Below, one piece after another: positions 5,399-64,000 of a DNA stretch of 64,000 bases (position 1 is the stretch's first letter; every line of letters starts with the position of its first letter). A program made the position numbers and the translations under genes. The notes beneath the pieces were generated by a model. It searched no databases, had not been told where the DNA came from, and was given only the letters and a program-made list of their open reading frames with translations. Source of the stretch: an uncultured Candidatus Moduliflexus sp. (lineage in GTDB: Bacteria; Moduliflexota; Moduliflexia; Moduliflexales; Moduliflexaceae); NCBI GenBank assembly GCA_964602655.1, contig CAZRSF010000017.1, positions 24,116 through 88,115 of the forward strand, read 5' to 3'.

Positions 5399-5470
5399 GG
5401 GACAGGGCTCGAACCTGTGAACTGAGCGGTATTAGCGCTCTGCTCTAACCAACTGAGCTACCCATGGTGG
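5399..5470 (-). tRNA. tRNA-like gene, probably degenerate (pseudo-tRNA)
   Basis: The reverse complement reads TAGCTCAGTTGGTTAGAGC (D-arm), GAGCG-CTAATAC-CGCTC (anticodon arm), ACAGG-TTCGAGC-CCTGT (T-arm), CCCA. Only 4 bp of acceptor stem can pair, and the anticodon loop gives the non-standard AAT anticodon. This is consistent with a decayed Met/Ile-type tRNA. Coordinates are accurate to about ±3. Confidence 0.4.
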
Positions 5471-5494
5471 CGAGCGTTCTAACCATCTGAACTA

Positions 5495-5532
5495 TCCGGT
5501 TGCCCGGAGCGGGACTCGAACCCGCGACCTCT
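5495..5532 (-). pseudogene. tRNA 3'-half fragment: variable hairpin, T-arm (GCGGGTTCGAGTCCCGC) and acceptor 3' strand TCCGGGC-A, with no matching 5' half
   Basis: The reverse complement reads …CGCGAGAGGTCGCGGGTTCGAGTCCCGCTCCGGGCAACC. It is followed directly by another D-arm-like fragment (GGATAGTTCAGATGGTTAGAAC). I found no complementary 5' acceptor strand within 400 nt. Confidence 0.4.
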
Positions 5533-10684: not shown

Positions 10685-10725
10685 CGTAGGGGCGTTCAGT
10701 AGGGGCGTTCAATTGAACGCCCCTA
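10685..10725. repeat. REP-like palindrome, family 4 (GTAGGGGCGTTCA-ATTGAACGCCCCTAC), 1.5 tandem copies; other copies at ~11589-11616, ~31998-32024, ~50058-50083 and ~51291-51338
   Basis: The inverted repeat overlaps the CHAD stop codon. A second copy lies between the CHAD start and the ppk1 stop. The copy at 51291-51338 has 24-bp perfect arms and bridges the mreB and DHH stop codons. Confidence 0.75.
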
Positions 10726-11565
10726 CGCTTGCGACGCCGCCGAAAACTCCGCCCAACACGCCTGAAATTCGCGGAAATAGGTTTCTTTTTCATCGCGGAT
10801 TTTCAGGAACAGCATATCGTAGGCGCGTTCATCCGTCAAGGCGGAAGCGTTGGCGTGAGTCTCATGAAAATCGTTGAGATGTTCTTTCGCCACATCGCCG
10901 TCATGCCAGTGGCCGAGCGCCTGATAAATGCCGCGCAACATGCCGTCTAATTCCGCGCTGTATTCGATTCCGGGAAAACAGCGTGTGGCAATCTCAAGCG
11001 TGTAGCGCGTTTCTTTGGCTAAAATGCGGAGCGGATGCAGAGAACTCTCTTTCAGGTCGCGCTGTTCGTATTCATGCAATTCTTGACGTTGAGCATCGAG
11101 GCGGTCGCGCATGTTTCGAGCGGCGTCCTCTTCTCTCAGCGGCGCAAGCGCTCGAATCAGTCGTTCGCCGTTGCGATGAAGCTCCTCTTCGAGATCGAAA
11201 TGCGCGGCAAACGCGGCAAACGATGCGCCAGCGCGGAGTTCTTTCCGTTTTAGCTCGTTATAATATTCGCTCAGAAAGACGCCCATCTCTTTCGCCCAGG
11301 CGCGGGTGAGTTCCTGCTGCACCTGCGCGTCGCGCAAATCGCCGCTGACTTTGAACAGTTTGCGAATCGGGCGCAGATATTTTTTCGACGGAAACGCCTC
11401 TGGCGCAAGGCTTTCGACTAAACGGAAGCACGCGCGGAGTTGTTTGATGCCGACGCGCATGTCATGCAGCGCATCCGGGTCGCGATAAGCCGCGGCGCGT
11501 TCAAAATTCGCCTGAATGCTTGCGGCGAGCGTCTGATAATATTCGAAAAAACATTGTTGAAACAT
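10723..11565 (-). CDS. CHAD-domain protein (polyphosphate-granule associated)
   Basis: The protein is all-helical with conserved His/Arg-rich CHAD motifs (ALHDMRVGIKQLRACFRL…LRDAQV). It sits next to ppk1. Confidence 0.75.
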   Translation of the reverse strand: MFQQCFFEYYQTLAASIQANFERAAAYRDPDALHDMRVGIKQLRACFRLVESLAPEAFPSKKYLRPIRKLFKVSGDLRDAQVQQELTRAWAKEMGVFLSEYYNELKRKELRAGASFAAFAAHFDLEEELHRNGERLIRALAPLREEDAARNMRDRLDAQRQELHEYEQRDLKESSLHPLRILAKETRYTLEIATRCFPGIEYSAELDGMLRGIYQALGHWHDGDVAKEHLNDFHETHANASALTDERAYDMLFLKIRDEKETYFREFQACWAEFSAASQA

Positions 11566-11637
11566 AGTGGAATTGAGGCATATCCAACGTAGGGGCGTTC
11601 AATTGAACGCCCCTACCGTTTTGTCATGATTATAGTA

Positions 11638-13791
11638 TTATTCAGTCGGCAGTTGCCGTTGCAAATAGGCGTAAATCGCCTCTTGCGAGCGCAACGGCTC
11701 GGCGTCGGGGATGCGGCGGTATTGGTTATCCAGCGCCTCTGTGATCATCCGCGCTTTGACGTTATCCTGCCACTGCAAATCAAAATAGGTGCGCAATTCT
11801 TTTTGCAACGCTTCATCGTAAATCGGACAGGCGACTTCGACGCGCGTATCGAGATTTCGGGTCATCCAATCGGCAGACGCGATATAATATTTTTCCCGTC
11901 CGCCGTGACAGAAAATGAAAATGCGCGAATGCTCCAAAAATTTATCCACAATGCTGATAATTTCGATATTCTCGCTGATTCCCGGCACACCCGGCACAAG
12001 CGAACAAATGCCGCGTACGATCAGGCGGATTTTTACCCCGGCGCGGCTCGCGTCATAGAGCGCCTCAATCATTCCGGGATCGGCGAGGCTGTTGAGTTTG
12101 ACGTAAATATACGCCTTCTTCCCGGCGGCGGCATGACGGATTTCAGACCGGATCAGTTCGTTCCAGCGGTCGCGCATAAAAAACGGAGACACGAGCAGAT
12201 GTTTGTAGGTCGTCAATTTATAATTGGTTTTCAGGAAATCGAATAACGCTTTCACCTCGTTCGTCAGGCGTTTATCGGCGGTCAGCAGCGTATGGTCGCA
12301 ATAGAGGCGGGCGGTGTCTTCGTTGAAATTGCCGGTGCCGATGGCGGCGTACCGTATCCGCTTGCCGCGTTCCAGGCGGGTAATCAGGCAGAGTTTGCAA
12401 TGGACTTTCAACTCCGGGATGCCGTATAAGACCCGCGCTCCTTCCTCGATCAATTGATTCGCCCAGTAAATATTGGCTTCTTCGTCGAACCGCGCCCGGA
12501 ACTCAAATAACACGGTCACCTGTTTGCCGTTGCGCACGGCATGACTCAGCGCGTTGACGATTTTCGAGAGTTCCGCCACCCGGTACAGCGTCATCCGAAT
12601 CGTCGTGACGTTCGGGTCTATCGCCGCTTCCCTGAGCAGATCGACCATGTAATCGAACGATTGATACGGGTAATGCAGCAGAATATCCCGCGCGCGAATC
12701 GTCTCGAACAGGCTTGTTCCCGCCTGAATGTCTTTATGCGGCAGCGGTTTGATCGGCGGGTATTGCAGCGCAGTCGGCGCGAGTTTCGGAAATTTCATAA
12801 AATCTTTGAAATTGAGATGACGCCGTTCCGGCAGCAGCGTGTCATGTCCGCTGAGATTCAAGCGCTTCGCGAGGAATTTTAAGAATTTGTCTGACATCCT
12901 CCAGTCGTATGTCAAACGGACTGGTTTGCCTTTGGGTCGCATTTTGAGACTTTTGGAAATTTTTTCGACAAAGCTCTGGGTCACATCGTCTTCAATATCT
13001 AACTCGGCGTCTTTGGTCACTTTAATCGGGAATGCTTCCACGACATTCCAACCCGAAATCGCGAAGAGTTCCGGCAACCCGAAGTTGACCAATTCTTCCA
13101 GCAGCATCACGGTCGTATCGCCATTATGGACAGGCAGCGTGATAAATCGAGACATCTCGTCGGTAGGAACTTCGACGATTGCATATTCCGACGCCGGCTT
13201 GCGTCTTGAGCCTTTCTGCTTGGCGTGCAAATGGACGGCAAGATAGATCGCCTGTTCTTGCAGCACCGGAAATTTCGGAAGTTGGCTCGCCATCATCGGC
13301 ACAATCGCGGGACGGACTTTTTCGGTGAAATACGACCGGAGAAATGCTTCTTGCTCAGGCGTCAACTCGTCGCGCGTCACGATAGAAATATCCTGGGCGC
13401 GCAGCGCGTCCAAAATGGTCTGATAATACTCTTCGAACTGAGACTGCTGATTTGTCACAATATGCTGAATTTCGTTCAGCGTTTCGTGTGGGTGTTTTTC
13501 TTCAGTTCGAAGTTTTGGATCAAGGCGTAACGACCGTTTCAGCGTCGCAACGCGCACCCGGAAAAATTCATCTAAATTCGATGAAAAAATCGCTAAAAAT
13601 TTGACCCGTTCCATGAGCGGCACGGTCGGATCGTTCGCTTCCTGCAACACTCTGGCGTTAAAACTCAACCAACTGATTTCGCGGTTAATGAGAGGAATTT
13701 CTTGTTTTTGGGCACTCATGATTGTCTTTCGGAAACCTTGAATGAATTCCTGCCGCCCTGCCAGGATTCGAATACCGTAGCAGGGCTGCAA
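11638..13791 (-). CDS. ppk: Polyphosphate kinase 1
   Basis: The protein is 717 aa with PPK1 N-terminal and catalytic motifs (…EISWLSFNARVLQEA…RVKFLAIFSSNLDEFF…) and tandem PLD-like C-terminal domains. Confidence 0.95.
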   Translation of the reverse strand: MQPCYGIRILAGRQEFIQGFRKTIMSAQKQEIPLINREISWLSFNARVLQEANDPTVPLMERVKFLAIFSSNLDEFFRVRVATLKRSLRLDPKLRTEEKHPHETLNEIQHIVTNQQSQFEEYYQTILDALRAQDISIVTRDELTPEQEAFLRSYFTEKVRPAIVPMMASQLPKFPVLQEQAIYLAVHLHAKQKGSRRKPASEYAIVEVPTDEMSRFITLPVHNGDTTVMLLEELVNFGLPELFAISGWNVVEAFPIKVTKDAELDIEDDVTQSFVEKISKSLKMRPKGKPVRLTYDWRMSDKFLKFLAKRLNLSGHDTLLPERRHLNFKDFMKFPKLAPTALQYPPIKPLPHKDIQAGTSLFETIRARDILLHYPYQSFDYMVDLLREAAIDPNVTTIRMTLYRVAELSKIVNALSHAVRNGKQVTVLFEFRARFDEEANIYWANQLIEEGARVLYGIPELKVHCKLCLITRLERGKRIRYAAIGTGNFNEDTARLYCDHTLLTADKRLTNEVKALFDFLKTNYKLTTYKHLLVSPFFMRDRWNELIRSEIRHAAAGKKAYIYVKLNSLADPGMIEALYDASRAGVKIRLIVRGICSLVPGVPGISENIEIISIVDKFLEHSRIFIFCHGGREKYYIASADWMTRNLDTRVEVACPIYDEALQKELRTYFDLQWQDNVKARMITEALDNQYRRIPDAEPLRSQEAIYAYLQRQLPTE

Positions 13792-13800
13792 TCGAATTTT

Positions 13801-14673
13801 TCAGTCTGCGCTCTCCTCCGAATCTGTCGCTGTCTGCTGCGACGGCTTCGCCGCGCACTTCGGCGTTTTGACCTTTGGCGATTTCGCCTTCGGGCGTTCG
13901 ATTTCTCCGGTCACTTGCGACGCGGCAGGCTCGTCATGCTTGATGGCGTCGTCTTGTCGCAGCCTGTCGATCCGTTTCAATTCATTGATTCCGGCCAACG
14001 CCTCGACTTTCGAGGACTGCAAAACACGCGTCAGTTCTTTGGCGAGCTTTTTGCTGGTTTTTTTCAGCACTTTTTGCACATGCTGGGACACGCCGGAGTC
14101 AATTCCTTCCATAATCGAAGCGACCGAGATGGAAATCTCTTCGGAGATCGCCTTTTTTACTTTTTTATAGACTTTGGGCGTGGCGTGTACCGGAAAATCG
14201 AACAGCAGCAGGATGCCGGTCTGTTCGCCGAGCGCTTGCCAACTTGCGGTCTCGAATCCGATCCCGACGACGCCGGTCGTGCGCATCTCAAGCCCTTCCG
14301 TCTCGCTCAGCAGCAAGGCAGCGAGGTTTGACAGCGCGGGTTCATGGCCGAAGAGCATCGCAACGTCATCGCTGTCGTCAAGCTGCGTGAGCAGATGCCG
14401 AATCTCCGCCGCGCCCCCGCCGTAAATTTCTTCTTTCAGCAAAATGTTCCGCACAGGATAGTCGAATTCCGTCGCAAAAATATGCGCGGTTTCAAGGGCG
14501 CGATCCGCGGGACTTGAAATCAAAATATTCGGTGCAATCCTTTTTTTCCCCAGCCGTTTGCTCATGGTTTTCGCGTCGTCAACTCCGCGCTTCGTGAGTG
14601 CGCGTTTGAAATCATTGACGCCGGATTCGCTGGAAATCGCTTTGCTGTGCCTGACAAGATAAAGTGTTTTCAT
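13801..14673 (-). CDS. Histidine-phosphatase-family protein (SixA-like phosphohistidine phosphatase) with an acidic/lysine-rich C-terminal tail
   Basis: The RHG motif is present (LYLVRHSKA). The chosen ATG at 14673 lies 5 nt after the PPK2 stop, which suggests translational coupling. The longer ORF reading up to 14850 would overlap PPK2. Confidence 0.65.
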   Translation of the reverse strand: MKTLYLVRHSKAISSESGVNDFKRALTKRGVDDAKTMSKRLGKKRIAPNILISSPADRALETAHIFATEFDYPVRNILLKEEIYGGGAAEIRHLLTQLDDSDDVAMLFGHEPALSNLAALLLSETEGLEMRTTGVVGIGFETASWQALGEQTGILLLFDFPVHATPKVYKKVKKAISEEISISVASIMEGIDSGVSQHVQKVLKKTSKKLAKELTRVLQSSKVEALAGINELKRIDRLRQDDAIKHDEPAASQVTGEIERPKAKSPKVKTPKCAAKPSQQTATDSEESAD

Positions 14674-14678
14674 AGTTG

Positions 14679-16196
14679 TTACCGTAATTTCCCTTCGATT
14701 GCGTGAATCACTGTTTTTAAGGTTTTGATGCGAGCGTAGTATTTCGAATTCGCTTCCACAATCGTCCAGGGCGCGTACGCCGTGCTGGTGCGGAAGAGCA
14801 TTTCGTCCACCGCCGCCTCGTACACGTCCCATTTCTCGCGATTGCGCCAATCTTCTTCCGTAATTTTCCAGGTTTTATTGTCATCGCGCTGCCGATCTTC
14901 GAAGCGTCGCAACTGTTCTGCCTGGTCTATATGCAGCCAGAATTTCACAATCGCCGCGCCAAAGTTGGCGATATGTTCTTCCATTTCATTGATTTCTTGA
15001 TATGCCCGCCGCCACGCCTCTTCTTTGCAGAAGCCCTCAATGCGTTCGACCAGGACGCGCCCGTACCAGGTGCGGTCGAAAATGGTGAGATGTCCGGCTT
15101 TCGGGAACGCTGTCCAGAAACGCCAGAGGTAATGATGCGCCTTTTCGATGTCATTGGGCGCAGCCACTGGAATCACTTCATAACCGCGCGGATCCATGCT
15201 CTGCGTCAGCCGTCGGATATTGCCCCCTTTGCCTGCCGCGTCCCAGCCTTCATACAAAATAATGACCGGAATGCGCTTGCGATAAATCTCGTGTTCCAAC
15301 TCGAACATTCGTTTCTGACAGGTTTTCAGTTCGTTTTCATATTCTTCCGGCGATAAGGTCGCCGAGAGATCGACTTTTTTCAAGATTGACGCGCCGAGCG
15401 TGCTGAATGCGTCTGGCGCGGGCGGCGTCCCCGCTGGCGCTGCGGCGTCGTTGACGACGACTGTCGCGGCCTGCCGCAGCAAATTGATCTGCCGGATTTT
15501 AGCGTCAATGCTATCAATGGCGGTTTTAAACACCTTCACCGTCGCAAAGTGTTTGTCGTGCGCTTCAATGACCGTCCAGGGCGCGAAGCTGGTGTCCGTT
15601 TTCGCCAGCATCTCCTCGACCGCGTCGAGATAGGCCGCATATTGTTCATGATGCCGCCAGTCTTCTTTCGTGACTTTCCACGACGTTGTCGGTGATTTCT
15701 CAAGCTTTTCGAAGCGTTTGCGCTGCGTCTCCTTGCTGATGTGCAGGAAGAATTTGATGATGAGCGCCCCCTCGTTGGTCAATTGCCGCTCGAACGAGGC
15801 AATTTCCTGATACGAACGCAGCCATTCCGGTTTTTTGACGAGTTTGTCGATCCGTTCCACTAATACGCGCCCGTACCAACTGCGGTCGAACACGGCGATG
15901 CGGCCTTTAGCCGGGGTTTTGATCCAGAAGCGCCAGAGAAATGGGCGTAAGCGTTCTTCTTCGTTCGGCGCGTTAATCGGAAGCACGACAAATCCGCGCG
16001 GATCGAGCGTCTGAATCAGGCGATTGATCATCGTGCCTTTGCCTGCCGCGTCCCAGCCTTCGAAGACGAGAATAATCGGAAGATTCAAGGCGCGAGCTTC
16101 CCGCTGCAACAGACCCAATCGTAGTTCCAAATCCGGCATAATGGTTTTGTATTGGTCTTTCTCAAGCGATTTAGCAAGATCGATCTGATCTAACAT
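14679..16196 (-). CDS. ppk2: Two-domain polyphosphate kinase 2 (PPK2 family, polyP:AMP/ADP phosphotransferase-like)
   Basis: Two tandem PPK2 domains are present. Each has a Walker-A-like EGWDAAGKG motif and a lid region. Confidence 0.9.
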   Translation of the reverse strand: MLDQIDLAKSLEKDQYKTIMPDLELRLGLLQREARALNLPIILVFEGWDAAGKGTMINRLIQTLDPRGFVVLPINAPNEEERLRPFLWRFWIKTPAKGRIAVFDRSWYGRVLVERIDKLVKKPEWLRSYQEIASFERQLTNEGALIIKFFLHISKETQRKRFEKLEKSPTTSWKVTKEDWRHHEQYAAYLDAVEEMLAKTDTSFAPWTVIEAHDKHFATVKVFKTAIDSIDAKIRQINLLRQAATVVVNDAAAPAGTPPAPDAFSTLGASILKKVDLSATLSPEEYENELKTCQKRMFELEHEIYRKRIPVIILYEGWDAAGKGGNIRRLTQSMDPRGYEVIPVAAPNDIEKAHHYLWRFWTAFPKAGHLTIFDRTWYGRVLVERIEGFCKEEAWRRAYQEINEMEEHIANFGAAIVKFWLHIDQAEQLRRFEDRQRDDNKTWKITEEDWRNREKWDVYEAAVDEMLFRTSTAYAPWTIVEANSKYYARIKTLKTVIHAIEGKLR

Positions 16197-19844: not shown

Positions 19845-22712
19845 TTATCCCTTCTGCCGCCGTTCCGCCATTTCGCGGATTTTGGTTTCGGTTTTGTCAA
19901 TGACTTCGTATTCCAACGTTTCTTCGATTTCCTGAGCGTCAATGTAGCTGTACGGCTCGGCGATGACGGCGTAGCGGCGGCGCAGCGTCGTCAATTCGAC
20001 CGGCTCTTCCGCTCCGGCAAACAGCATCGGCTGAATCGGGATCGGCGTGGTAGTCGCCAATTCGATGACTTCATGCTCGACCTGCGACGGGTCGTTGAAA
20101 TCCACAATCGCAAACCGGGAAATCGAGGACAGGGCGGCGACGGCGGCGAGCGATTCCGCTCCGCCGGGCTGTTTCACGTCCAATTTCAACGGCGCGTACC
20201 GGCGTTTTCGCAGCAGCTTGCGAATCGCCTCAAGCTCCGCGAGCCGCTCCTCTGAAAATCGCCCTAACATCAAGACCACTTTTTTCGCCACGCCATCCGA
20301 AATTTCGCGAACTTCCTGATCCTCAATCAACAGCGAAATCAATTGAATCACGTTGAGATGATCGACGGTAATCACGCATTCATCGTCTTCTTTCAGCACG
20401 AGATTCCATTGCCGCGTCTCGTCGTCCGTGTTGATATTGCAAACCGACAGCCCATACACCTGACAGCCGGACAGGTCGGCGCCGCTGAGGTTGGTTTCCA
20501 TGAATCGCGCATGGCGCAAGTCCGCGTCGCGCAGGTCGGCATGGCTCAAATCCGCTTGCTGAAAATTGACCCAGCGCAGGTCGGTGCCGCTCAAATCGGC
20601 GTGATTGAAATCCGCGCCGGTCAGCGTGGCGGCGCTCAAATCCGCCCAGCGGATCGAGGCGTGGCGCAGATCGGCGTGGCTCAAGTTTGCCCAACGCAAA
20701 TCGGTTTCATTGAGCAGCGTTTTGGCAAGGTTCGCTTCGGTCAAATCGGCTTCCAGCAGGTCAACGCCGTTCAAATCCATGCCGCTCAGATTCGCGCCGC
20801 GCAATTTGACTTTGCTCAGGCAGACCTGCCGCAGATTGACCTGCCGCAGGTCGCTTTCGTTCAGAATCGCGCCAGACAGGTTGGTTTCGTTGAAGTTCGC
20901 GTTTGTGAAATCGGTCTGGCTCAAATCGGCGTCCTGGAGATTCGCGTTATTCAACATCGCGCCGGAAAGATTGGCTTTTTTGAGATTGGCCTTTTTGAGG
21001 TTGGCGCGGCTGAGGAAGGCGTTCGACAACTCTGCGCCACTGAGGTTCGCGCCTTCCAGATTCGATTCGATGAGAAACGCGCCGCGCAACTCGGCTTTGC
21101 TGAGGTCGATATTTTGCAGGGACACCTTGCTGAGATTCACTTTCGCGAGCTTTGCGCGGCTCAAATTCGCGTCGCGGAGCATGACATCGCTCAAATCGGC
21201 TTCCGTCATGTTCGCTTCGCTGAGATTCGTGCCGCTCATCTCGGCGTGTTTCAGATTGGCGCCCGTCAAATCAGCCCAGCGCAGGTCTGATTTTTCCAAT
21301 AAGGTCTCGCTGAGATCGGCCTTGCACAGTTCCGTGCCCCATAAATCCGCGCGGCTCAAATCCGCCCGATGCAATCGCGCTTTTATCAGGTTGCCGCCGC
21401 TGAGATTCGCCCATTTCAGGTCGGCGTTTTCCAGATTGGCCTCCTGCAAACAGGCTTTATTCAGATTGGCGCGGCTGAGATTCGCGCCGGTCAGAATGGC
21501 ATGGCTGAGATTCGCGCCGCTGAGGTTCGCCCAGCGCAAATCAGCTTTGGCGAGGTCAGCGGCGCTCACGTTGGCATCGCTCAGGTTTGCGCCCTGCAAG
21601 ATCGCGCTGCCGAGCTTCGCCTTGCTCACGTCAGCCCCGCTGACATCCGCGCCGCTCAGGTCAGCCCCGCGCAAATCCATCTCGCGCAAGTTCAGCTTTT
21701 GCAAATTGCATCCGCGCAGGCTCACGCGGCATAATGCCACCTCGGCCATATCAATCTGGCGCAAATCCGCGCCGCTGAGATTCGCGCCGTTCAAATCCGC
21801 GCCTTGAATTTGAATGCTGCTGACATCCACTTCGCTCAAATCCACATTGGTAAGGTTCGCATTGTGAAAATCGGTTTCATGCAGATACGCGCCCCAGATG
21901 TCGGCGTTGCTGAGGTCTGCGCCGACGAGAATCGCCTGGTTGAGGTTTGCGCCGCTCAGGTCAGCCCCCCCGAGGTCTGCGCCGGTGGCGTCCGCGCCGG
22001 TCATATCTGCGCCGCAGAGGTTCGCGCCGCGCAGGTTGGCCTCATTCAGGTTTGCGCCGTGCAATAACGCGCCGCGCATATTGGTTTTATTCAAGGAGGC
22101 TTTGCTGAAATTGAGATGCGAGAGAATCGCTTTGCTCAGATTCGCTTCAGTCAGAACGGCTTTGCTGAAATCCACCTCGGTCAGCGTCGTGTTGGCAAGT
22201 GTCGCGCCCGTCAGATCAGCGCTGCTGAGATTGGCGCCGTTCAAGGCGACTTCGCTGAGTGTCACGCCGGAGAGGTTCGCCCGGCTCAGATCAGCGCCTT
22301 CGAGGTCAGTGCCGCGTAATTCGGCGCGTTCCAATTCCGCTTTGCCTAAATCAACCTTTTTGAGCGTGCTTCCGGTTAAGTCCGCGCCGCGCAGATTCGC
22401 GCCATTCAAATTGGCTTCAGTCAGGTCAGCGCCAGACAGCGTCGCCTCGCTCAAGTTTGCGCCGCGCAGATTTGCGCCGCGCAGATTTGCGCCAGAAAGC
22501 GTTGCGCCGCTCAAATTCGCGCCCCAGAGGTTCGCGCCTTCCAAATTGGCGTCGCTCAGGTCAACCTTGTGAAAATTTACCTCTAACAGATGCTCTTTGC
22601 TCAGTTGCGCCTCGCGCAAATCCAGCGCTTCTGTCGAAGGATGCTCCTGCCGCCATTGATTCCATGCTCCCGCGCCTGCCTGTAACCGCTCAAGATCGTG
22701 CTGCTTTGCCAT
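19845..22712 (-). CDS. Giant pentapeptide-repeat protein (~670 aa of A(D/N)LxG-type repeats) with an uncharacterised ~270-aa C-terminal domain
   Basis: The translation is dominated by ANLSGANL/ADLSGADL pentapeptide units. GAGG lies 7 nt before the ATG at 22712. Confidence 0.9.
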   Translation of the reverse strand: MAKQHDLERLQAGAGAWNQWRQEHPSTEALDLREAQLSKEHLLEVNFHKVDLSDANLEGANLWGANLSGATLSGANLRGANLRGANLSEATLSGADLTEANLNGANLRGADLTGSTLKKVDLGKAELERAELRGTDLEGADLSRANLSGVTLSEVALNGANLSSADLTGATLANTTLTEVDFSKAVLTEANLSKAILSHLNFSKASLNKTNMRGALLHGANLNEANLRGANLCGADMTGADATGADLGGADLSGANLNQAILVGADLSNADIWGAYLHETDFHNANLTNVDLSEVDVSSIQIQGADLNGANLSGADLRQIDMAEVALCRVSLRGCNLQKLNLREMDLRGADLSGADVSGADVSKAKLGSAILQGANLSDANVSAADLAKADLRWANLSGANLSHAILTGANLSRANLNKACLQEANLENADLKWANLSGGNLIKARLHRADLSRADLWGTELCKADLSETLLEKSDLRWADLTGANLKHAEMSGTNLSEANMTEADLSDVMLRDANLSRAKLAKVNLSKVSLQNIDLSKAELRGAFLIESNLEGANLSGAELSNAFLSRANLKKANLKKANLSGAMLNNANLQDADLSQTDFTNANFNETNLSGAILNESDLRQVNLRQVCLSKVKLRGANLSGMDLNGVDLLEADLTEANLAKTLLNETDLRWANLSHADLRHASIRWADLSAATLTGADFNHADLSGTDLRWVNFQQADLSHADLRDADLRHARFMETNLSGADLSGCQVYGLSVCNINTDDETRQWNLVLKEDDECVITVDHLNVIQLISLLIEDQEVREISDGVAKKVVLMLGRFSEERLAELEAIRKLLRKRRYAPLKLDVKQPGGAESLAAVAALSSISRFAIVDFNDPSQVEHEVIELATTTPIPIQPMLFAGAEEPVELTTLRRRYAVIAEPYSYIDAQEIEETLEYEVIDKTETKIREMAERRQKG

Positions 22713-22761
22713 ACCGCCTCGTTCTTCGATGTTTCGTAAATAATACACGCCACAGAGGAAA

Positions 22762-24244: not shown

Positions 24245-24433
24245 AAAAATATTCGTTTGGTAAAAGTTGTCAGACACCTCGAAGGTGTCTGACAACTTGA
24301 TAGAAATAGAGTGATCATGTTGAGGATTGCATCAAAATCAGGCGGATTGAAGTCAAGGGAAAAAACAGCAGCGAATCATTGCTTGACATTCCCGGCGATT
24401 CTGCCGAACATGTCCCTCAAAGGAGGCGTGGCG

Positions 24434-25438
24434 ATGGCGTCGAATCTCAACATGACGAATTTGCTGAAAATTATCACGGAAATCAAAACCAATCCGCATC
24501 AGACGCCGGAAGAGCTTTATTCGACGTTTGGCATCTCGAAAGCCGGATTTTACAAGTACAAACAGCGATTGGCGCAGGAGATGGACTTCGAATTTCATTA
24601 TGAACGCGGGCAAAAATGTTTCATGATTGATCGCGAGCCGTTTTTACCGACGCTCAATCTGGAACTCGGCGAACTCTCCGCGCTTGTCTTGAGCATGGGA
24701 CAATTTTACGCTTCAGGCGGCGATTCGGTCGTGACCTATCGCGCGTTGAAAGCGGTGCAGAAGCTGGTGGCGACCTGCGCCGATCACTCGGTTCGCCGTC
24801 AATTAGACCTGATGCTGGATGAAGCGATTGCCAATCGCGGGTACGGTTGCAAAGAGCAGATATTGCAGTTGGTGGAGCAGGCAATTCAAACACGCAAGAT
24901 TCTGCGCATTCATTACTTTTCACATTCAGAAGGGATGAAAGAGCTTGTGCATGAGGTCGAGCCGTATCTGATTTTTTTCAAACGCCGCACGTTGTACATG
25001 GATGCGCATTGCCGCGCAAAATGGGGCACGATTCGGATGTATCGCCTGAATCGGATACGCAACGCGGAAATATTGCCGCAGACCTCGTTCGAAGTTCGAG
25101 AAGAATATTCCTTCAAACAGCGCCATCGGCATGCCTTTTCGATTTATACCGACTACGCCGAAGATACGCCGACGCCAGTGCGGATTCGTTTCAACCAGCA
25201 TAAAGCGCCGTATATCGAAGAAGTGCTGTGGCATCCGTCGCAAAAAATCTTGCCAGACCCGGAACGACCAGGCAGTATTCTGTTCGAAGTCACGGTGTCA
25301 TATCCGAAAGAGGTGATCTGGTGGATGCGGCAGTGGGGGAGCGATGCGGAAGTTCTCGATCCCCCCGAAATGCGGCAATATGCGTTAGAATTGGCGCGGC
25401 AGGAAGCGCGGATATATGAGCGGCAGGAGATAAAATGA
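24434..25438 (+). CDS. WYL-domain transcriptional regulator (N-terminal HTH, WYL, C-terminal extension)
   Basis: AGGAGG precedes the ATG at 24434. The WYL core is present (…YLIFFKRRTLYMDAHCRAKWGTIRMYRLNRI…). Confidence 0.75.
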   Translation: MASNLNMTNLLKIITEIKTNPHQTPEELYSTFGISKAGFYKYKQRLAQEMDFEFHYERGQKCFMIDREPFLPTLNLELGELSALVLSMGQFYASGGDSVVTYRALKAVQKLVATCADHSVRRQLDLMLDEAIANRGYGCKEQILQLVEQAIQTRKILRIHYFSHSEGMKELVHEVEPYLIFFKRRTLYMDAHCRAKWGTIRMYRLNRIRNAEILPQTSFEVREEYSFKQRHRHAFSIYTDYAEDTPTPVRIRFNQHKAPYIEEVLWHPSQKILPDPERPGSILFEVTVSYPKEVIWWMRQWGSDAEVLDPPEMRQYALELARQEARIYERQEIK

Positions 25439-57520: not shown

Positions 57521-58123
57521 TTAATAAGGAGAACGGGCGGAGTCCGGAGGACAGACAGACTCGCGCTGCTTCATGAAAATCGGCGGTGTGGTTGGGTCAA
57601 GGACAAAGACATCCGACCAGAAAATTGTTGGAATACTCGGTGTGGCATAGCGAATCACCGGCCCATCGTCATACAGCCCGACCGCGTCGGCAGCGATTGC
57701 GCCGCGTTGCAGCAAAACGTTCTCAAGACGAGCGTCTGAATCCAGCGTGAGCGTGAGACGTACCGGCGTATCTGCTTGAAACGCGATATGCGACGGCAGC
57801 GACGCGTCTGTTTCGTCCGCGATGCCCGAAAAGAAACCAGTGTCGCTGCTCTGCGTTTCTGTGTAGGTCAACAGATAGTCTCCCGCTTCAGGAATGTTGA
57901 CGCATAATAATTCGGCGCGCGCCTGCCACTCGAATTCCTGAGACGCGGCGTCCCCTGCCGCGAAACCGGACAGCGGATACGCGCCCCCCGATAAGGGCGA
58001 GATCGGCGCTTGTTCGTCATAATCCAGCGTGTTGCATCCCGGATTGACGGCAAGCAGCATCGCAAGCGCGATCCATTGGAATCGTTTTTGCCAAACACAG
58101 GTAGTTCTGTTGATATCGGTCAT
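57521..58123 (-). CDS. Lipoprotein, hypothetical
   Basis: The protein has a signal peptide with the lipobox NPGC. Confidence 0.5.
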   Translation of the reverse strand: MTDINRTTCVWQKRFQWIALAMLLAVNPGCNTLDYDEQAPISPLSGGAYPLSGFAAGDAASQEFEWQARAELLCVNIPEAGDYLLTYTETQSSDTGFFSGIADETDASLPSHIAFQADTPVRLTLTLDSDARLENVLLQRGAIAADAVGLYDDGPVIRYATPSIPTIFWSDVFVLDPTTPPIFMKQRESVCPPDSARSPY

Positions 58124-58200
58124 AAAGAAAGATTCTCCTCACAACAGAGCGTCTTTTGTCAATTGAAAAATGAGGGATTTCTTTCTCATAACCGTGTCAT

Positions 58201-58380
58201 ATAGGAGAAATGATGGAAGAGCGTTTACCGAATATTCATCCTGACGAAGTATTAGAAGAAGAGTTTTTACAACCGTTGCATATGTCAGCGTCGCGGTTAG
58301 CGCAGGCGATCCGGCTGCCGCAACGCCGATTCGAAAAGCAGCTTACGCGAATTGACCATTTTCAGAGGATGCCCGGCTGA
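58201..58380 (+). pseudogene. HigA-like (XRE-HTH) antitoxin gene remnant, truncated or frameshifted after ~50 aa
   Basis: The translation MEERLPNIHPDEVLEEEFLQPLHMSASRLAQAIRLPQRRFEKQL… matches the HigA N-terminal pattern (IHPGEILxEEFLxPLGLS…LA.ALGV) but ends at 59 aa without the C-terminal helices. No toxin gene is adjacent. Confidence 0.5.
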
Positions 58381-58539
58381 TTTATTTCTCCGCGTCAAGT
58401 CCCCACACGCGCCCATTATACGACACGCGGGCGACCGGCCTGCCGTTTTCGGTCAACTCCCCGCCCGACCAATTCCCGCCGCCGAGGTCGTACTGTTCGA
58501 TATAAGCGCGGCAGGCGGCGCTGATTTCTTTGAATTCGA

Positions 58540-59790
58540 TCACAATTTCTTTATATCTGGAATTCCGGCTCTGCTGTTATGGGAATATAATTTTTGCAGA
58601 AAATCGTTTTTGTATGGATCATCAAAACTACAAATAAAACTTAATACAATTTCTTTTCCTTGAAATAAAAATATATCTTTATACTCCATCTGTTTAGGTG
58701 TTTTAGGATATTTTCTCATTTCATTAAATTTATCTAATTTATCTTTGGGAAGAGATTTGGACAATTTATCTATCACCTCTTCAGAAAGATACTGTTGTAT
58801 AATGATTTTGGATTTAAAAATTGCCACAAAATCAATCAGATTATTTTCTATAGATAACGCTGGGAAAAGATGCCAGGAAGGTTCTTTGAATTCTTTAATG
58901 CTTTTCCTCGCTTCTGATTTTAAGGCTAACTCTTGATTATCGAATTGCTGCAATTCAATAAGTTCAAGATATTTCGTGCTGCCTTGTTCAATGTCGCAAG
59001 CGGGGGTGATGACAATCCCATATTTAAGAATCTTTCCAGTATCGAATCTTACAATATCGCCATTACGAATCATTGTTGCATCTGATTCGTAATAAAGCAT
59101 TTTATTCAGGATGTATCTTCGTTTTTCATCTTTCCCAATGCTCTTAGCAAAATCTCGCGCATTTCGTAAAAGTTGCTTCAAATCACCAGTAAATCTGGTA
59201 TTTTTGACCAACTCTCGATGAATAAGATTTAAGATAAAATCATTACTCCAATCTATATTTTCTTCTTCTCCAATAAGAAATTTGAGGAGAGCAGCAATAT
59301 CCTGATTTGGAAGTTGCATTAAATCGAAAAAAACTTTTTCGATTCCGCCTCTGATGACTTGACGATATACATTGCTGATTTGGGCTGTTAGCGATTGTTG
59401 AAACCATTGAGAAATTTTTTGTTCAAGGATAATTGAAGAGACATTTTCTTTAGAAATTGCAGTAATCAATGCTTTCGGGTAAGAAATTTCATCTCTTAAA
59501 ACGCTTTCATCATAATTTGAAATATGATTTGACCAAATAAAGACGGGAATAAAATATCTGTTTTGCAAATGCTTTAAAACTAAGAGACTCAACAAATGGT
59601 TCTGTTCTTCTAAATACCAGTCTAAAATAACCACATCAAAGTTGATGCCAGAATCAAGAATTGTAATCGCGTCATCTTTTGTTCCACAGCAGTGAAGAGT
59701 AATCTGGTTTTGTTGAAAGTCTTCACGTAATGTTTCTTCAAAATCAAGATAGTCATCATCAATAAGTAGCACTCGCTGTACGTTATTCAT
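58540..59790 (-). CDS. Response regulator: N-terminal REC domain fused to an uncharacterised ~300-aa C-terminal output domain
   Basis: REC hallmarks are present (VLLIDDD…, phospho-acceptor context DVVILDWYL, PVFIWS). GGAG lies 9 nt before the ATG at 59790. The start overlaps the upstream kinase stop (ATGAATAA). Confidence 0.7.
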   Translation of the reverse strand: MNNVQRVLLIDDDYLDFEETLREDFQQNQITLHCCGTKDDAITILDSGINFDVVILDWYLEEQNHLLSLLVLKHLQNRYFIPVFIWSNHISNYDESVLRDEISYPKALITAISKENVSSIILEQKISQWFQQSLTAQISNVYRQVIRGGIEKVFFDLMQLPNQDIAALLKFLIGEEENIDWSNDFILNLIHRELVKNTRFTGDLKQLLRNARDFAKSIGKDEKRRYILNKMLYYESDATMIRNGDIVRFDTGKILKYGIVITPACDIEQGSTKYLELIELQQFDNQELALKSEARKSIKEFKEPSWHLFPALSIENNLIDFVAIFKSKIIIQQYLSEEVIDKLSKSLPKDKLDKFNEMRKYPKTPKQMEYKDIFLFQGKEIVLSFICSFDDPYKNDFLQKLYSHNSRAGIPDIKKL

Positions 59791-61921
59791 TATGATTCTC
59801 CGTAAATGTGATTTTGAACGATGCTCCTTGTAATAAACCGATTTCTGGATAATCATCTTTCGATACAAGGGCAATATCCCAATTCTTCTCCTCTAAAATT
59901 TCTTTAACAATATACAAACCAAGCCCCCGTCCATCCTCAATTTTTGTAGTGAAAAACGGTTCGAAAATTTTATCTTTATACCGCGAAATCACTCCAGAAC
60001 CACTATCCGAGACAAACACAGAAGATGTTTTGGCATCAAGAATAATCCGAATACTACGTTTATCCAGTTCGGATTTACGCGACAACCAGAAAATTGCGTT
60101 ATCAATCAGATTGTTAAAAATCTGCATACAAGAGCCTTCTCGCATTTTTACGATAAAACTTTCTCCCTGCATTTCAATCTGAATAGATTCTTTTTCTAAC
60201 CAACGCTCTTGTAAAGCTATCGTATTTTCAATAATCTTCCGGATCTCTAATTCTTTTTCATTTGCAACCTTTTTAACGTAAAACATTGGACCTAAAAGAC
60301 GAATATCATTTCGTAATGCTTCTAAGGAGCTATAGAGCAAATCGAGTTCTTTTTTGATCTTCGGGGATAATGGATCAAGAAATTTTTTGAGTCTTCCTAA
60401 CGCATCAAGAGCGCCACGCACCAGACGAGCAAATTCATGCGTAAATCGTTCAGCGGCTAAACCTGTCCCTGCAAGACTAAACAATGTCTCTTTTTCCTGT
60501 TTCTGTGATTCAAAAGACTCTTTTACTTCTTCCTCAAATGTTGTGATCTCATTCACAGAATTCTCAAGAATCGCGGCAACTTTGACATTATTTTCTTTGT
60601 GACTTTCTGCAAGCTTATCTGCTAAAGTTGAAAGTTTTGTTTTCGCCTGTTGAAGAGGTTCACTATTATAATCCTGTTTTTTTTCTTTTTTCGGCCTATC
60701 TGCTAAACGCTCGTGCTCTAACACTTGTATTGTAGCAAGAACAAGCTCTCGAAATTGATGAAATGCAAGGTTTTCAATTAATCCTTCACGATTGGTCTTA
60801 TCTTTTAAAAGTTGATTTTCGATCTGGTTGACCTCAATCATGCCAATTATTGTTTTATTGTCAATCTTTCCTGTCGGATCTTGCACTCTTCTTTTATCCA
60901 ATTCAAGCCAATCATCACCTCTCTCTCCGTAAGGAAGAATTCGTATTCCATCCCTATAAATACTCACTCCACACAACTCTTCAATATCTTTTTTAATCAC
61001 CCCTGATTTTTGCAACCATTCAGGAGATTTATCATAATTATGCAAATTAACAATAAAGCTACCACAAATAAGTTCTTCTTGTATTTTGAGGGAATATTCT
61101 TTAATTAGATTAATTTGCCCATTTTTTTGAGTTGGTTTATATCCTGGAACAAAAAAATAATATTCAAACTCAAGTACACCTTGAGTATCTACTATGCCCC
61201 AAAATTTATAATGAGCTTTTTCTAAAATGTCAGAGATTTCAAGGTTTCCATATTTCAGAAATTCTTCTGGACAATCTTCAATTTTCAAAGTGACATCAAA
61301 ATCAGTTGCTCCTTTGAATGGACTTTTCATTCTTTTTAAAGTATTAGCAACACGTTTTATATCAGTCTCAGTCCAATTCGATTTCAAATGAGAAATCTCT
61401 AATAATACTCCTGATTCTTCCTGTTGAAATTCTATTAATGATCTTTCTGCATAACCTATTTCAATATCGTTCAGGTCTTTTCCTTCCACATCAAATTCTT
61501 GCCAGTCAATAGAAACTACTAACTCAATATTAGAATCTTTTACTTTAGAAATCAACGTCAGTGTATTTCCGATCTGTTGAGCTGCAAATCTTCCCACTCC
61601 CTTTTCCCCTAATGGAAGCCTACCCAGTAGTGTTCTTTCTTGTTTGGCTTTTTGCTTTTCTTTATGACCTGAGGCAGGATTCATCCACTTCGTAAGAAAA
61701 GTTTCTGTATCCATCCCACAACCATCATCTCTAATAGTGATCTTTGCGCTAGAAGTATTTAACGCAACCATACTCACCTGAACAGAGGTTGCATCAGCAT
61801 CGTAACTATTTTTAACGAGTTCTACAAGCCCAACAGAAGCGTCCTTGATCAGTTGTTCTCCAAGAATCTGGATTAATCTCGCTTTCGGGGTAAAAGCCTG
61901 TTTGCCTGTTTTCATATTCAT
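59783..61921 (-). CDS. Fusion protein: N-terminal MORC/HATPase_c_3-type GHKL ATPase, central linker, C-terminal histidine kinase (DHp-like H-box + HATPase_c)
   Basis: The N-terminus reads …LVELVKNSYDADAT…ITIRDDGCGMD… (GHKL Bergerat fold). The C-terminus has a candidate H-box (ERFTHEFARLV), an N-box (QIFNNLIDNAIFW), G1 (DSGSGV) and G2 (GRGLGLYIVKE). The start codon directly abuts the HerA stop (TAAATG). Confidence 0.8.
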   Translation of the reverse strand: MNMKTGKQAFTPKARLIQILGEQLIKDASVGLVELVKNSYDADATSVQVSMVALNTSSAKITIRDDGCGMDTETFLTKWMNPASGHKEKQKAKQERTLLGRLPLGEKGVGRFAAQQIGNTLTLISKVKDSNIELVVSIDWQEFDVEGKDLNDIEIGYAERSLIEFQQEESGVLLEISHLKSNWTETDIKRVANTLKRMKSPFKGATDFDVTLKIEDCPEEFLKYGNLEISDILEKAHYKFWGIVDTQGVLEFEYYFFVPGYKPTQKNGQINLIKEYSLKIQEELICGSFIVNLHNYDKSPEWLQKSGVIKKDIEELCGVSIYRDGIRILPYGERGDDWLELDKRRVQDPTGKIDNKTIIGMIEVNQIENQLLKDKTNREGLIENLAFHQFRELVLATIQVLEHERLADRPKKEKKQDYNSEPLQQAKTKLSTLADKLAESHKENNVKVAAILENSVNEITTFEEEVKESFESQKQEKETLFSLAGTGLAAERFTHEFARLVRGALDALGRLKKFLDPLSPKIKKELDLLYSSLEALRNDIRLLGPMFYVKKVANEKELEIRKIIENTIALQERWLEKESIQIEMQGESFIVKMREGSCMQIFNNLIDNAIFWLSRKSELDKRSIRIILDAKTSSVFVSDSGSGVISRYKDKIFEPFFTTKIEDGRGLGLYIVKEILEEKNWDIALVSKDDYPEIGLLQGASFKITFTENHNE

Positions 61922-63571
61922 TTACTCCGTATGTTCACGTTTACTTGAGCAAGGCCGCATACTTGTCATAATCGGATGCTGAAATTGAGGCGAAACAATT
62001 ATACAATTTCCTTGTCCTAAAGTAGGGACTTCATCCCAAACAGATTCATTAACGCTACCAGCCGATGTTTTTAATACTTTGAGGTTATGACTGCCGGTTG
62101 TCTGGTGAATAACTTTAGTATTACACAATTCATAAATTTCATCGGGCAGGTGTGATGGCTGTTGAGAGATAAAACAGAGTCCTAACCAACGTTTTCTTCC
62201 CCGTCGAGCGACTTCACGTAAGCGATCCAGCAGAGCTTCCATTTTGCTGGCATTTTCTCTACTGACAAAGGTATGCGCTTCTTCGATGACAATTAAGGTC
62301 GGCGGTAAATTCTCGTCATGGATTTTTTGATCAAACACCTTTCTTAGAAGATAAGCGATTACAATATTATTAACGCGGACATTATAGGAATTACTTAAAT
62401 CAATTACGCTTACTTTTCCTGGTCTGATTAATGCCGTAGGATCAAGATATTCTTCCGCTAAATCAAAGATGCCAAACCTTTTTAGGCGTTCTAATAATCT
62501 TTTAACAACAAACCATGAAGATTTATCTGCCCCATTTGCTGAATTTATATGATCATTTACAGATTTAACTACATCTTTTAACGTAAGATCAGGGTAATCC
62601 TCATCTTCAAGAAATTCATTCTCTTCGAGAGCTTTCCATTGATTAGAAGATGACTTTTTCTTTTGCGCTTTATCTCCATTACAAATCCGATCTCTCACTT
62701 CATTCCATGCACTAATAAATCGGTCTTCCTGATTTTCATTCATCCCCATAATCGCTGATAATTCATAGGGGGAAAGACTTCCAAATGGAATTCCGAATTC
62801 TATAGCATCTTTTCTTTTTGTCTCTGTTGCCAAAGGAAAATATACCTGAAAGTCATTCAACCCTTTGGCAGTAATTTTAAAACGTTCTGCAATTTTTTGA
62901 AATTCTTTGTTTTTAAGAATTTCTTCAGATGGATAATCCATTGAGATATACTCACCTTCTACATCAAGAACAATTACTGCCCAACCTGCTGAACTTGCCT
63001 CTTCAATAAGTACTTGTGAGGAATTTGTTTTTCCAGACCCAACAGTTCCGAATATTCCTGTATTTCTTGGAAGAACTGATTTTTTATTACCATCGAAATG
63101 AACTCGAATATCGCCATACCCACTAAGTTGGCCGAGATACATGTTTCCTTGCAGACGAAGCAAGTCTTCTATTTTTTCAGGCGGTAATGGAAATATAGCA
63201 GACTTTGGGCGTGGTCTCGTTTGAACGCTTGATAAATTCGCAGAAGTAAGGTTAAAAAGGCCGAGCAGTTCTACAAAACAAATACCATGATAATCTGGCA
63301 AAAATCCAATTTTACCAGCCTGAATAATTGCCGTTTTAGCAAACGCAGATTCACGGCTCACAGCATCAGGCGTATAAAAAGGGCCTTTAACAATCCGTGC
63401 CAAATAAAAATGCTCTTCTTTACTGGATTCAACAATGACATATTTCCCTCTGAAGATTTCCTTAATTTTATCAAAAGGAACTCTGATTTCCACTTCGTTA
63501 TTCGACCCGCCAGGCGCTGAATCAAAATTAACAAATCCAATTGCGTGTTCTTTTGCAAAACCTGTTTCCAT
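61922..63571 (-). CDS. herA: HerA-like FtsK/HerA-superfamily ATPase (HAS-barrel N-domain + ATPase core)
   Basis: Walker A GTVGSGKTN, Walker B LIVIEEAHTF and the HerA-type ISQQPSHLPDEIYELCNTKVIHQ motif are present. AAGGAG lies 8 nt before the ATG at 63571. Confidence 0.8.
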   Translation of the reverse strand: METGFAKEHAIGFVNFDSAPGGSNNEVEIRVPFDKIKEIFRGKYVIVESSKEEHFYLARIVKGPFYTPDAVSRESAFAKTAIIQAGKIGFLPDYHGICFVELLGLFNLTSANLSSVQTRPRPKSAIFPLPPEKIEDLLRLQGNMYLGQLSGYGDIRVHFDGNKKSVLPRNTGIFGTVGSGKTNSSQVLIEEASSAGWAVIVLDVEGEYISMDYPSEEILKNKEFQKIAERFKITAKGLNDFQVYFPLATETKRKDAIEFGIPFGSLSPYELSAIMGMNENQEDRFISAWNEVRDRICNGDKAQKKKSSSNQWKALEENEFLEDEDYPDLTLKDVVKSVNDHINSANGADKSSWFVVKRLLERLKRFGIFDLAEEYLDPTALIRPGKVSVIDLSNSYNVRVNNIVIAYLLRKVFDQKIHDENLPPTLIVIEEAHTFVSRENASKMEALLDRLREVARRGRKRWLGLCFISQQPSHLPDEIYELCNTKVIHQTTGSHNLKVLKTSAGSVNESVWDEVPTLGQGNCIIVSPQFQHPIMTSMRPCSSKREHTE

Positions 63572-63584
63572 AGTTCTTCTCCTT

Positions 63585-64000
63585 CTACTTTTGACGTAAG
63601 GAATCTTCTGGCATTTCGGAAAGAAACTCTCCTTCTTGCGCAAGTTTAAACTCAACAATATTATTAAAATCTGTTGCCTTAAACAAAGTTGAACAGAGGT
63701 TATCCGCATAATCAATTAATAACGGAAATCCTTTTTCTCTTTGAAACATTGCATCTCTGGCAATAATTCTTGCGGCCTGTTCGAAATAATCCTGATGTGC
63801 ATGGAAAACATAAGGACGCTGAGAGATTTTAATGATTCCAATAAGAATTTTAGAAGCTTCTTGCTTTAAAAAGTGAGTCATTCTAAGCAATTCTTCTTCT
63901 CGCCATTTGTCTTTTGCCATAAAATCTTCATTTCTCAATAATTCCATTCCAACATTTGTATGCTTTAATAAAAAATATTCTCCTGAATTTAATGCCATAC
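63585..64000 (-). CDS. Partial CDS (C-terminal ≥138 aa) of an unknown protein immediately upstream of the HerA-like gene; the 5' end lies outside the window
   Basis: The ORF is open to the window edge and ends 13 nt before the HerA start. I could assign no domain from the visible part. Confidence 0.5.
   Translation of the reverse strand, partial: MALNSGEYFLLKHTNVGMELLRNEDFMAKDKWREEELLRMTHFLKQEASKILIGIIKISQRPYVFHAHQDYFEQAARIIARDAMFQREKGFPLLIDYADNLCSTLFKATDFNNIVEFKLAQEGEFLSEMPEDSLRQK

Follow-up and report, generated by a model that had tools for sequence, protein, structure and literature searches.

Modules of Rot/TROVE and SPFH/Band-7 proteins with cognate non-coding RNAs (YRNAs and a novel tRNA-like molecule) were reportedly described by Burroughs and Aravind in 2016 as potential scaffolding cofactors of RNA repair. 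[quoted passage not shown] YrlA RNAs are defined by the order T arm, acceptor-like stem, D arm and by a 5' motif GNCGAAN0-1G, the likely contact of Ro/Rsr, and nearly all of the best-matching YrlA candidates lie at most 4 kb from rsr on the same strand (Chen et al. 2014, PMC4201824). Here, we describe a locus in a 64,000-nucleotide stretch of DNA from an uncultured Candidatus Moduliflexus sp. (contig CAZRSF010000017.1, positions 24,116 to 88,115, assembly GCA_964602655.1; the whole stretch is referred to below as the window). In this locus, two intact tRNA-shaped modules belong to one non-coding RNA of ~530 nt upstream of a gene for a soluble Band-7/SPFH protein (slipin), and this RNA is probably the cognate cofactor of the Band-7 protein.

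As the preprint describes it, this kind of system had already been predicted in 2016. The window resembles a b7a-tRNA locus in having a tRNA-like non-coding RNA beside a Band-7/SPFH gene on the same strand, as do ten other loci. However, the cloverleaf of the window is only one module of the ~530-nt RNA, which also comprises a YrlA-like domain and two large covarying domains; the predicted promoter box is of the sigma-70 rather than the sigma-54 type, and no RtcB, RlaP or RtcR gene is linked to it. Compared with the 2016 prediction as far as the description in the preprint goes, this composite form, in which a YrlA-like domain is fused to a b7a-type cloverleaf, appears to be new. Band-7-associated RNA has no Rfam family.

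Results

A structured RNA is conserved upstream of the slipin gene

Slipin homologues were collected, their contigs were fetched and the RNA was sought upstream of each gene. Together with the two from the genome scan described below, ten further copies were found, nine of them full-length and one (L035) cut off at the contig end, and the slipin orthologues were 52-92% identical. In every contig that reaches far enough upstream, a YrlA-like module is followed by a tRNA-like module ~260-330 nt before the gene (~430 nt in L046). The identity of the RNA to the window copy falls to 55% with the fold retained, and an nhmmer profile of the whole intergenic RNA matched L032, L033/34, L036/37, L038, L044/45, L046/47 and L048 with E-values of 1e-70 to 1e-157. 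A pattern anchored on CGGATACCG uncovered two true loci among 185,579 species genomes (L039 and L040), both from Candidatus Moduliflexus of the phylum Moduliflexota, namely Bacterium UASB14 (DF820457) and one metagenome-assembled genome, with copies 85-88% identical to the window RNA; three further matches to this pattern (L041-L043) were chance or tRNA-array hits. An earlier genome scan with a stricter pattern of fixed D-loop lengths gave no match, the pattern being too rigid because the orthologues have shorter D loops, and the collection scanned lacks the source genome. No match was obtained in a first metagenome scan anchored on CCGATGCC. When viral contigs were scanned with a composite pattern of T loop, D arm and D arm, all 29 matches were false positives from tightly packed phage tRNA arrays; the composite pattern matched once in the window and in 0 of 100 shuffles, well outside what chance would give.

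The alignment of the 11 sequences (A3) is conserved from an invariant TTGACA onwards; the conservation stops ~60 nt short of the start codon in the window and, in six other lineages, 10-25 nt short of the ribosome-binding site. Because module 2 was mispaired by RNAalifold under ribosum scoring, default scoring was used instead. The consensus structure of 121 pairs was compared with two controls, slid partners and 500 shuffles. We observed that 94.3% of the cells were paired in comparison to 39-44% with slid partners, a contrast that is inflated by the derivation of the structure from the same alignment, and that 67 of the 121 pairs had double-sided changes in comparison to 15-26, a count that is much less affected. 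The covariation score was 0.44 (slid partners, ~0.09), and not one of the 500 shuffles reached any of these three values. Among the loci compared here, the RNA co-occurs strictly with one slipin clade. The neighbouring genes other than slipin vary between the loci, so that the conserved unit is the RNA plus the slipin gene; in the window, the upstream neighbour of the RNA is a divergent AraC-family gene.

The conserved TTGACA region would be the promoter, with a -35 box of the sigma-70 type as judged from its sequence. Owing to its weak -10 box, it is missing from the output of a simple promoter consensus scan of the locus. The upstream part AAGAAAC-N-CTTGACAGATT is common to five of the ten full-length copies in the alignment.

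The 5' part of the RNA (domain I) is closed by an outer stem in which 5654-5645 pairs with 5548-5540, and it carries a near-invariant motif GYGURCCG (GCGUGCCGAUG at 5568-5558). Its helices 1-4 contain 21 pairs with double-sided changes and are 89-97% paired; moreover, domain I folds in isolation with z = -4.3, and none of 200 shuffles folded equally well. The long 3' part (domain IV) is closed by an 18-bp helix between 5386-5367 and 5147-5128, 11 pairs of which covary, and helices 13-19 together have 28 pairs with double-sided changes. Two motifs stand out in this domain, the invariant CGGAUACCG (5292-5284) and the near-invariant AGACCGC (5166-5160), which differs by one base in each of two copies. 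The linker between the two tRNA-like modules keeps a length of 4-6 nt across the aligned copies, and its sequence is variable.

Between the RNA and the ribosome-binding site the window has a perfect hairpin. At the same spot L040 and L039 have unrelated strong hairpins of other sequence and length, and six other lineages have none. There is no U tract in any of these hairpins, and the one in the window is therefore not intrinsic-terminator-like. The contigs with the exact slipin protein and with an 87% relative (L030 and L031) begin 38-45 nt upstream of the gene and could not show the RNA. These two independent Logan short-read assemblies break just downstream of the structured RNA, within or beside the inserted-hairpin region, and this stretch may cause assembly breaks.

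Features of the RNA-slipin locus and of other parts of the window. Positions are those of the window; for minus-strand features of the promoter and RNA the 5' end is given first.
Feature	Position	Strand	Basis or remark
AAGAAAC element, promoter region	5698-5692	minus	two bases before the -35 box
Predicted -35 box TTGACA	5689-5684	minus	same aligned position in 10/10 full-length copies
Weak -10 box TATCTC	5666-5661	minus	17 nt downstream of the -35 box
Whole structured non-coding RNA, ~530 nt	~5654-5128	minus	11-sequence alignment and covariation
Domain I, 5' multi-stem	5654-5540	minus	helices 1-4 covary; two hairpins inside outer and inner stems
Module 1, circularly permuted tRNA-like domain, YrlA type	5535-5470	minus	Rfam YrlA, minimum-free-energy fold and covariation
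Linker CACCA between modules 1 and 2, 5 nt	5469-5465	minus	read from sequence
Module 2, tRNA-like cloverleaf	5464-5398	minus	Rfam tRNA 49.1 bits; ARAGORN; covarying anticodon stem
Domain IV, long 3' multi-stem	5386-5128	minus	helices 13-19 covary
Perfect 13-bp hairpin CCUCACAGGUUUU/AAAAACCUGUGAGG	5116-5090	minus	between RNA and ribosome-binding site
Ribosome-binding site GAGAGG of slipin gene	5083-5078	minus	
Band-7/SPFH (slipin) gene, 392 aa, start codon ATG at 5070	5070-3892	minus	Pfam Band_7 6.7e-30
Ser/Thr kinase-WD40 protein gene, downstream of slipin	3849-820	minus	
967-aa protein, almost all pentapeptide repeats	19845-22748	minus	
WYL-WCX regulator	24311-25438	plus	
444-aa protein	58540-59874	minus	
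HATPase_c_3 and GHKL domain protein	59783-61921	minus	
HerA/DUF87-type ATPase	61922-63715	minus	

Module 1 is a circularly permuted tRNA

A preliminary description of this DNA had listed a tRNA 3' half, a stray 5' acceptor/D-arm-like piece and a nearly complete tRNA body on the minus strand, and all of these elements are present in the sequence where it had placed them. The first of them does not begin with the variable hairpin that had been described; instead, a 5-nt stem strand GCGAG (5535-5531) is followed by a 5-nt variable loop, AGGUC in RNA letters (AGGTC). Then come the T arm, GCGGG-TTCGAGT-CCCGC at 5525-5509, and TCCGGGCA (UCCGGGCA as RNA) at 5508-5501, which leads into the D-arm piece ACCGGATAGTTCAGATGGTTAGAAC (ACCGGAUAGUUCAGAUGGUUAGAAC as RNA) at 5500-5476. 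Read as a structure, the module thus consists of the GCGAG closing strand, the variable loop, the T arm, an acceptor-like hairpin UCCGG-GCAA-CCGGA capped by a GNRA loop (GCAA), U8-A9, the D arm, G26 and CUCGC (5474-5470). The supposedly stray 5' piece is there, but it is not stray, since its end CTCGC pairs with GCGAG and closes the permuted fold; the '3' half' and the '5' piece' are therefore one unit. The permuted cloverleaf is the minimum-free-energy fold of the isolated 66-mer and accounts for 46% of the ensemble, and helices 5-8 (closing stem, T stem, acceptor-like hairpin and D stem) covary. Module 1 is a circularly permuted tRNA in which the acceptor ends are joined by the GCAA loop and the anticodon stem is open. 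It has no anticodon loop, the 'anticodon stem' opening into the rest of the RNA. The fallback suggestion of an unusual permuted or split tRNA arrangement was right as to the topology of this module. The missing anticodon loop distinguishes it from a Cyanidioschyzon-type permuted tRNA gene, with which it shares the permuted order.

In Rfam, module 1 matched YrlA (RF02553) at 5533-5472 with 40.3 bits (E 3.8e-7 in E-value mode) over model positions 23-85 only, which are exactly the tRNA-like domain of the YrlA family, and it did not reach the gathering threshold of 69 bits for RF02553; the orthologues scored 26-39 bits. Like YrlA, it has the order of variable region, T arm, acceptor-like hairpin and D arm, and it keeps U8, A14, G15/C48, G18G19 and the UUCGA T loop. 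In contrast to YrlA, the window RNA has neither a Ro-binding 5' motif nor an rsr neighbour, and module 1 is embedded in a far larger RNA with a second tRNA mimic directly after it (the Rfam model has 114 positions and the M. smegmatis YrlA RNA ~147 nt). A regular-expression search for GNCGAAN0-1G in the 5' part of ten copies found none, and the nearest conserved motif was the GYGURCCG of domain I. Only the clade to which the window belongs has the permuted YrlA-like module. The string UCCGGGC-A of module 1 in the window is the 3' acceptor strand of tRNA-Phe.

Module 2 is a cloverleaf that does not decode

Module 2, which precedes the slipin start codon by 328 nt and lies on its strand, shows the arms (D, anticodon and T), the acceptor pairing of 4 bp and the anticodon AAT that the preliminary description had read; the acceptor strands are TGGG/CCCA, and the anticodon stands in the loop CTAATAC. 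ARAGORN called a tRNA-Ile(aat) at 5466-5395. The Rfam tRNA (RF00005) score of 49.1 bits compares with a threshold of 29, and the match covers only model positions 4-67 of 71, so that the outer acceptor pairs are missing. All five anticodon-stem pairs covary. In the 11 copies the anticodons are AAU, AAA, CAU (three copies), GAA (five copies) and CGA, the acceptor has 3-6 bp, and neither the discriminator base nor CCA is conserved. ARAGORN made no call in the close Moduliflexus relatives L039 and L040. In the alignment, the invariant nucleotides of both modules cluster in their D arms and T loops, and the conserved features are therefore two tRNA elbows and not the anticodon. Module 2 resembles a canonical tRNA in possessing all four arms, five orthologues have a CUGAAGA loop (or a close variant) carrying GAA, and the variable loop GUGUC of most copies is like that of E. 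coli tRNA-Phe, but it differs in the truncated acceptor, the absence of a CCA end and the lack of a conserved anticodon. It is not a decoding tRNA; it is a candidate 'band-7-associated tRNA'.

A partner for the anticodon loop was sought, and nothing beyond a partial complementarity turned up. In five orthologues the module 2 loop has CUGAA (corresponding to window 5435-5429), to which UUCAG is complementary; the latter lies in the 3' strand of the helix that closes domain IV (window 5141-5137; A3 columns 292-298 against 603-607), and in L036 both sides carry matched changes (CCGAA with UUCGG). This complementarity is absent in six of the 11 copies, the window among them, and it may be due to chance or represent a lineage-specific switch. 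In L036 and L038, in which the module 2 loops carry GAA, a B3_4 domain protein (PF03483) is encoded immediately upstream of the RNA. This domain also occurs in the PheRS beta subunit, and GAA is the Phe anticodon; a coincidence is possible.

Comparable size and a multi-domain, strongly covarying architecture are shared with OLE, GOLLD, ROOL and HEARO RNAs. However, an Rfam search of the window RNA with E-values up to 10 gave no match to any of these four families, and none of them is known to be built around two complete tRNA cores.

The slipin protein and its distant homologues

The slipin of the window has no transmembrane or hydrophobic segment and no unusual charge. Its AlphaFold model (mean pLDDT 85) consists of two beta-rich N-terminal units, the SPFH domain and a long helix, and it matches stomatin, HflK/C and prohibitin, the longest alignments being with major vault protein. 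By their entry titles, the matched structures are all from deposited ring or cage assemblies. The PADLOC defence-system models gave no match for the slipin. The kinase-WD40 protein encoded downstream matches PADLOC PD-T4-6 via its generic kinase domain only, and its gene adjoins slipin only in the closest relatives, L030 and L031; the kinase-WD40 protein was rejected as a part of the system because the gene is not conserved beside the RNA. In one lineage only (L033/L034), two tandem metallo-beta-lactamase-fold genes (Lactamase_B / Apyc1-like) lie beside slipin, downstream of it and on the opposite strand.

Genes for RtcB, RlaP, RtcR or TROVE/Rsr were not found among the non-overlapped open reading frames of at least 270 aa in the window, and RtcB and RlaP were not found in the flanks of the ten orthologous loci. 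More distant slipins were found by tblastn of the window slipin against plasmid and chromid records. In Burkholderia cenocepacia (L053, 42% identity) the locus comprises a divergent RtcR gene, a sigma-54-like promoter TGGCACGCTCCTCGCT, two tandem degenerate tRNA-like elements, slipin, RtcB and RlaP. E. coli STEC639 (L052; CP061233, 608811-615935; 39.5% identity) has a sigma-54-like promoter TGGCACGCTTCTCGCA, a leader, slipin and RlaP, and the slipin-RlaP pair is inserted between the DUF3811 gene and lysC; immediately downstream, the opposite strand has a zeta-toxin-domain open reading frame. Of 5426 complete E. coli genomes, 1629 carry >=80% of the stretch made up of leader and slipin. In soil metagenomes (L049-51), a 47%-identical slipin is preceded by domain I and by a tRNA-like module that scores 60.9 bits with the Rfam tRNA model, and there is no YrlA-like module. 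When the window RNA was compared with these distant leaders by nhmmer, L049 matched with E 1e-10 and the Burkholderia leader with E 5.6e-4, domain I being homologous in both, and the E. coli leader had no significant match. Domain I and the cloverleaf look ancestral to the Band-7-associated RNA because they are common to the L049 and L053 leaders.

Other parts of the window

At 58000-64000 the GC content drops from ~50% to 34-37%, and this part has the look of an island gained by horizontal transfer, perhaps one for defence. A polyphosphate gene cluster at 10723-16196 encodes a CHAD-domain protein, polyphosphate kinase 1, a histidine-phosphatase-family protein and a two-domain PPK2.

Discussion

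It is well supported that the locus encodes a conserved structured RNA with two tRNA mimics, which is linked with a Band-7 gene and akin to the b7a-tRNA systems that had been predicted. Judged from the analogous Ro60 and Y RNA and from the operons in which the distant homologues lie, this RNA is most likely a cofactor of a Band-7 scaffold. The ~530-nt RNA would be transcribed from the conserved TTGACA promoter, probably as a co-transcript with the slipin gene, and could serve the Band-7 scaffold as Y RNA serves Ro60/Rsr. The two invariant tRNA elbows (D loop plus T loop) might be handles for tRNA-recognising enzymes or, alternatively, decoys for tRNA-cutting nucleases within a tRNA/RNA-damage response, and in the window lineage the pair of RNA and Band-7 protein would work without a linked ligase gene.

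Three points weigh against a cofactor. Genes for RtcB, RlaP, RtcR and Rsr are missing from the set of reading frames described above, and the link to repair therefore rests on homologues of only 39-43% protein identity. The sequence and structure comparisons revealed no recognisable RNA-binding domain or unusual charge in the Band-7 protein. Finally, the end of the RNA 10-25 nt before the ribosome-binding site in six lineages fits a purely cis-acting leader equally well.

The main rival is a purely cis-acting 5' leader, a very large untranslated regulatory region that would control the transcription or translation of slipin, perhaps via a tRNA-recognising protein or a closing-helix switch, and have no role in trans. 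The RNA is always found on the strand of the gene and immediately upstream of it, there is one conserved promoter, and no terminator separates the two; moreover, GAGGYGUUCAG, which forms the 3' strand of the closing helix, is similar to the real ribosome-binding site GAGGUGA, and in five copies UUCAG within this strand is complementary to the CUGAA loop of module 2, with the matched changes of L036 pointing in the same direction. However, this loop complementarity is lacking in the other six copies. Also, with its 19 helices, its two complete tRNA cores and its ~530 nt the RNA far exceeds any known bacterial cis-regulator, and inserts occur before the ribosome-binding site, in Moduliflexus hairpins of at least 27 nt (~90 nt in L039) and in L046 ~100 nt extra. 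The variability of these inserts means that the exact spacing of the RNA is unimportant. We hold a purely cis-acting leader to be possible, although somewhat unlikely; a leader function and a cofactor function are not mutually exclusive.

Alternatively, the RNA could be a true YrlA Y RNA that binds an Rsr/Ro60 protein encoded elsewhere, its adjacency to the Band-7 gene being incidental. Module 1 fits the YrlA model and the defining order of arms (PMC4201824), but the score lies well below 69 bits and the Ro-binding stem is unmatched, GNCGAAN0-1G is absent from the 5' part of all ten copies, no TROVE-domain gene was found among the non-overlapped open reading frames of at least 270 aa in the window, and the characterised YrlA RNAs have only a fraction of the length of this RNA, which exceeds them several times. 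Thus, a Y RNA of this type appears distinctly improbable.

The preliminary description had preferred to see a decayed tRNA and an orphan 3' half, that is, tRNA gene debris in which a pseudo-tRNA and duplicated halves are left over from integrase-mediated insertion or excision. At first sight one may indeed see in the pieces a tRNA 3' half, a 5' piece and a tRNA whose acceptor stem is damaged. However, the 3' half is single-copy, no second copy being found in the window with up to three mismatches allowed, and no integrase was found among the neighbouring genes or among the non-overlapped open reading frames of at least 270 aa; a tRNA-gene att site would show a direct repeat of the tRNA 3' part bounding an integrase island, neither of which was found in the window. 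Moreover, the pieces pair with each other in the minimum-free-energy fold, and compensatory changes conserve the arrangement in ten loci with otherwise different neighbours. The covariation and the conserved gene order refute the reading as integration scars, and we consider debris of this kind very improbable indeed. That module 2 might be a functional tRNA-Ile(AAU) gene whose acceptor stem is unusual, as the ARAGORN call and the Rfam tRNA score above the threshold might suggest, has next to no probability in view of the short acceptor without a conserved discriminator base or CCA, the anticodon identity that shifts among the orthologues, the A34 anticodons, which are unusual in bacterial tRNA sets, the CGA copy without the long variable arm that tRNA-Ser requires, and the silence of ARAGORN on L039 and L040.

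The cofactor reading can be extended, more speculatively, from the AlphaFold model. The soluble slipin might form a vault-like cage or ring with the ~530-nt RNA and its two tRNA mimics as a dedicated component, a bacterial 'mini-vault' that would capture or shield tRNAs under RNA-damaging attack; its beta repeats, SPFH 'shoulder' and cap helix would then be arranged as in major vault protein. The eukaryotic vault also includes vault RNA and TEP1/TROVE. However, the slipin of the window has 392 aa in comparison to ~780-810 aa in the matched chains of major vault protein, and the window RNA is unrelated to vault RNA. We regard the mini-vault as an unlikely proposal; if it were true, the eukaryotic combination of a small RNA and an SPFH-type shell might have evolved from it.

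Conclusions

The calls 'tRNA-Ile(AAU)', 'tRNA-Ser(CGA)' and 'tRNA-Phe' upstream of slipin genes should not be annotated as tRNA genes. The alignment obtained here can seed a covariance model for mapping the family, and since there are related loci in E. coli and Burkholderia, the proposed partnership of RNA and protein is directly testable. The 67 covarying pairs represent strong comparative evidence that the Band-7 partner RNA is real. In one clade, this partner RNA is much larger than a tRNA and unites both known bacterial kinds of tRNA mimic in one molecule, and a Band-7 partner RNA can exist without a linked ligase gene.

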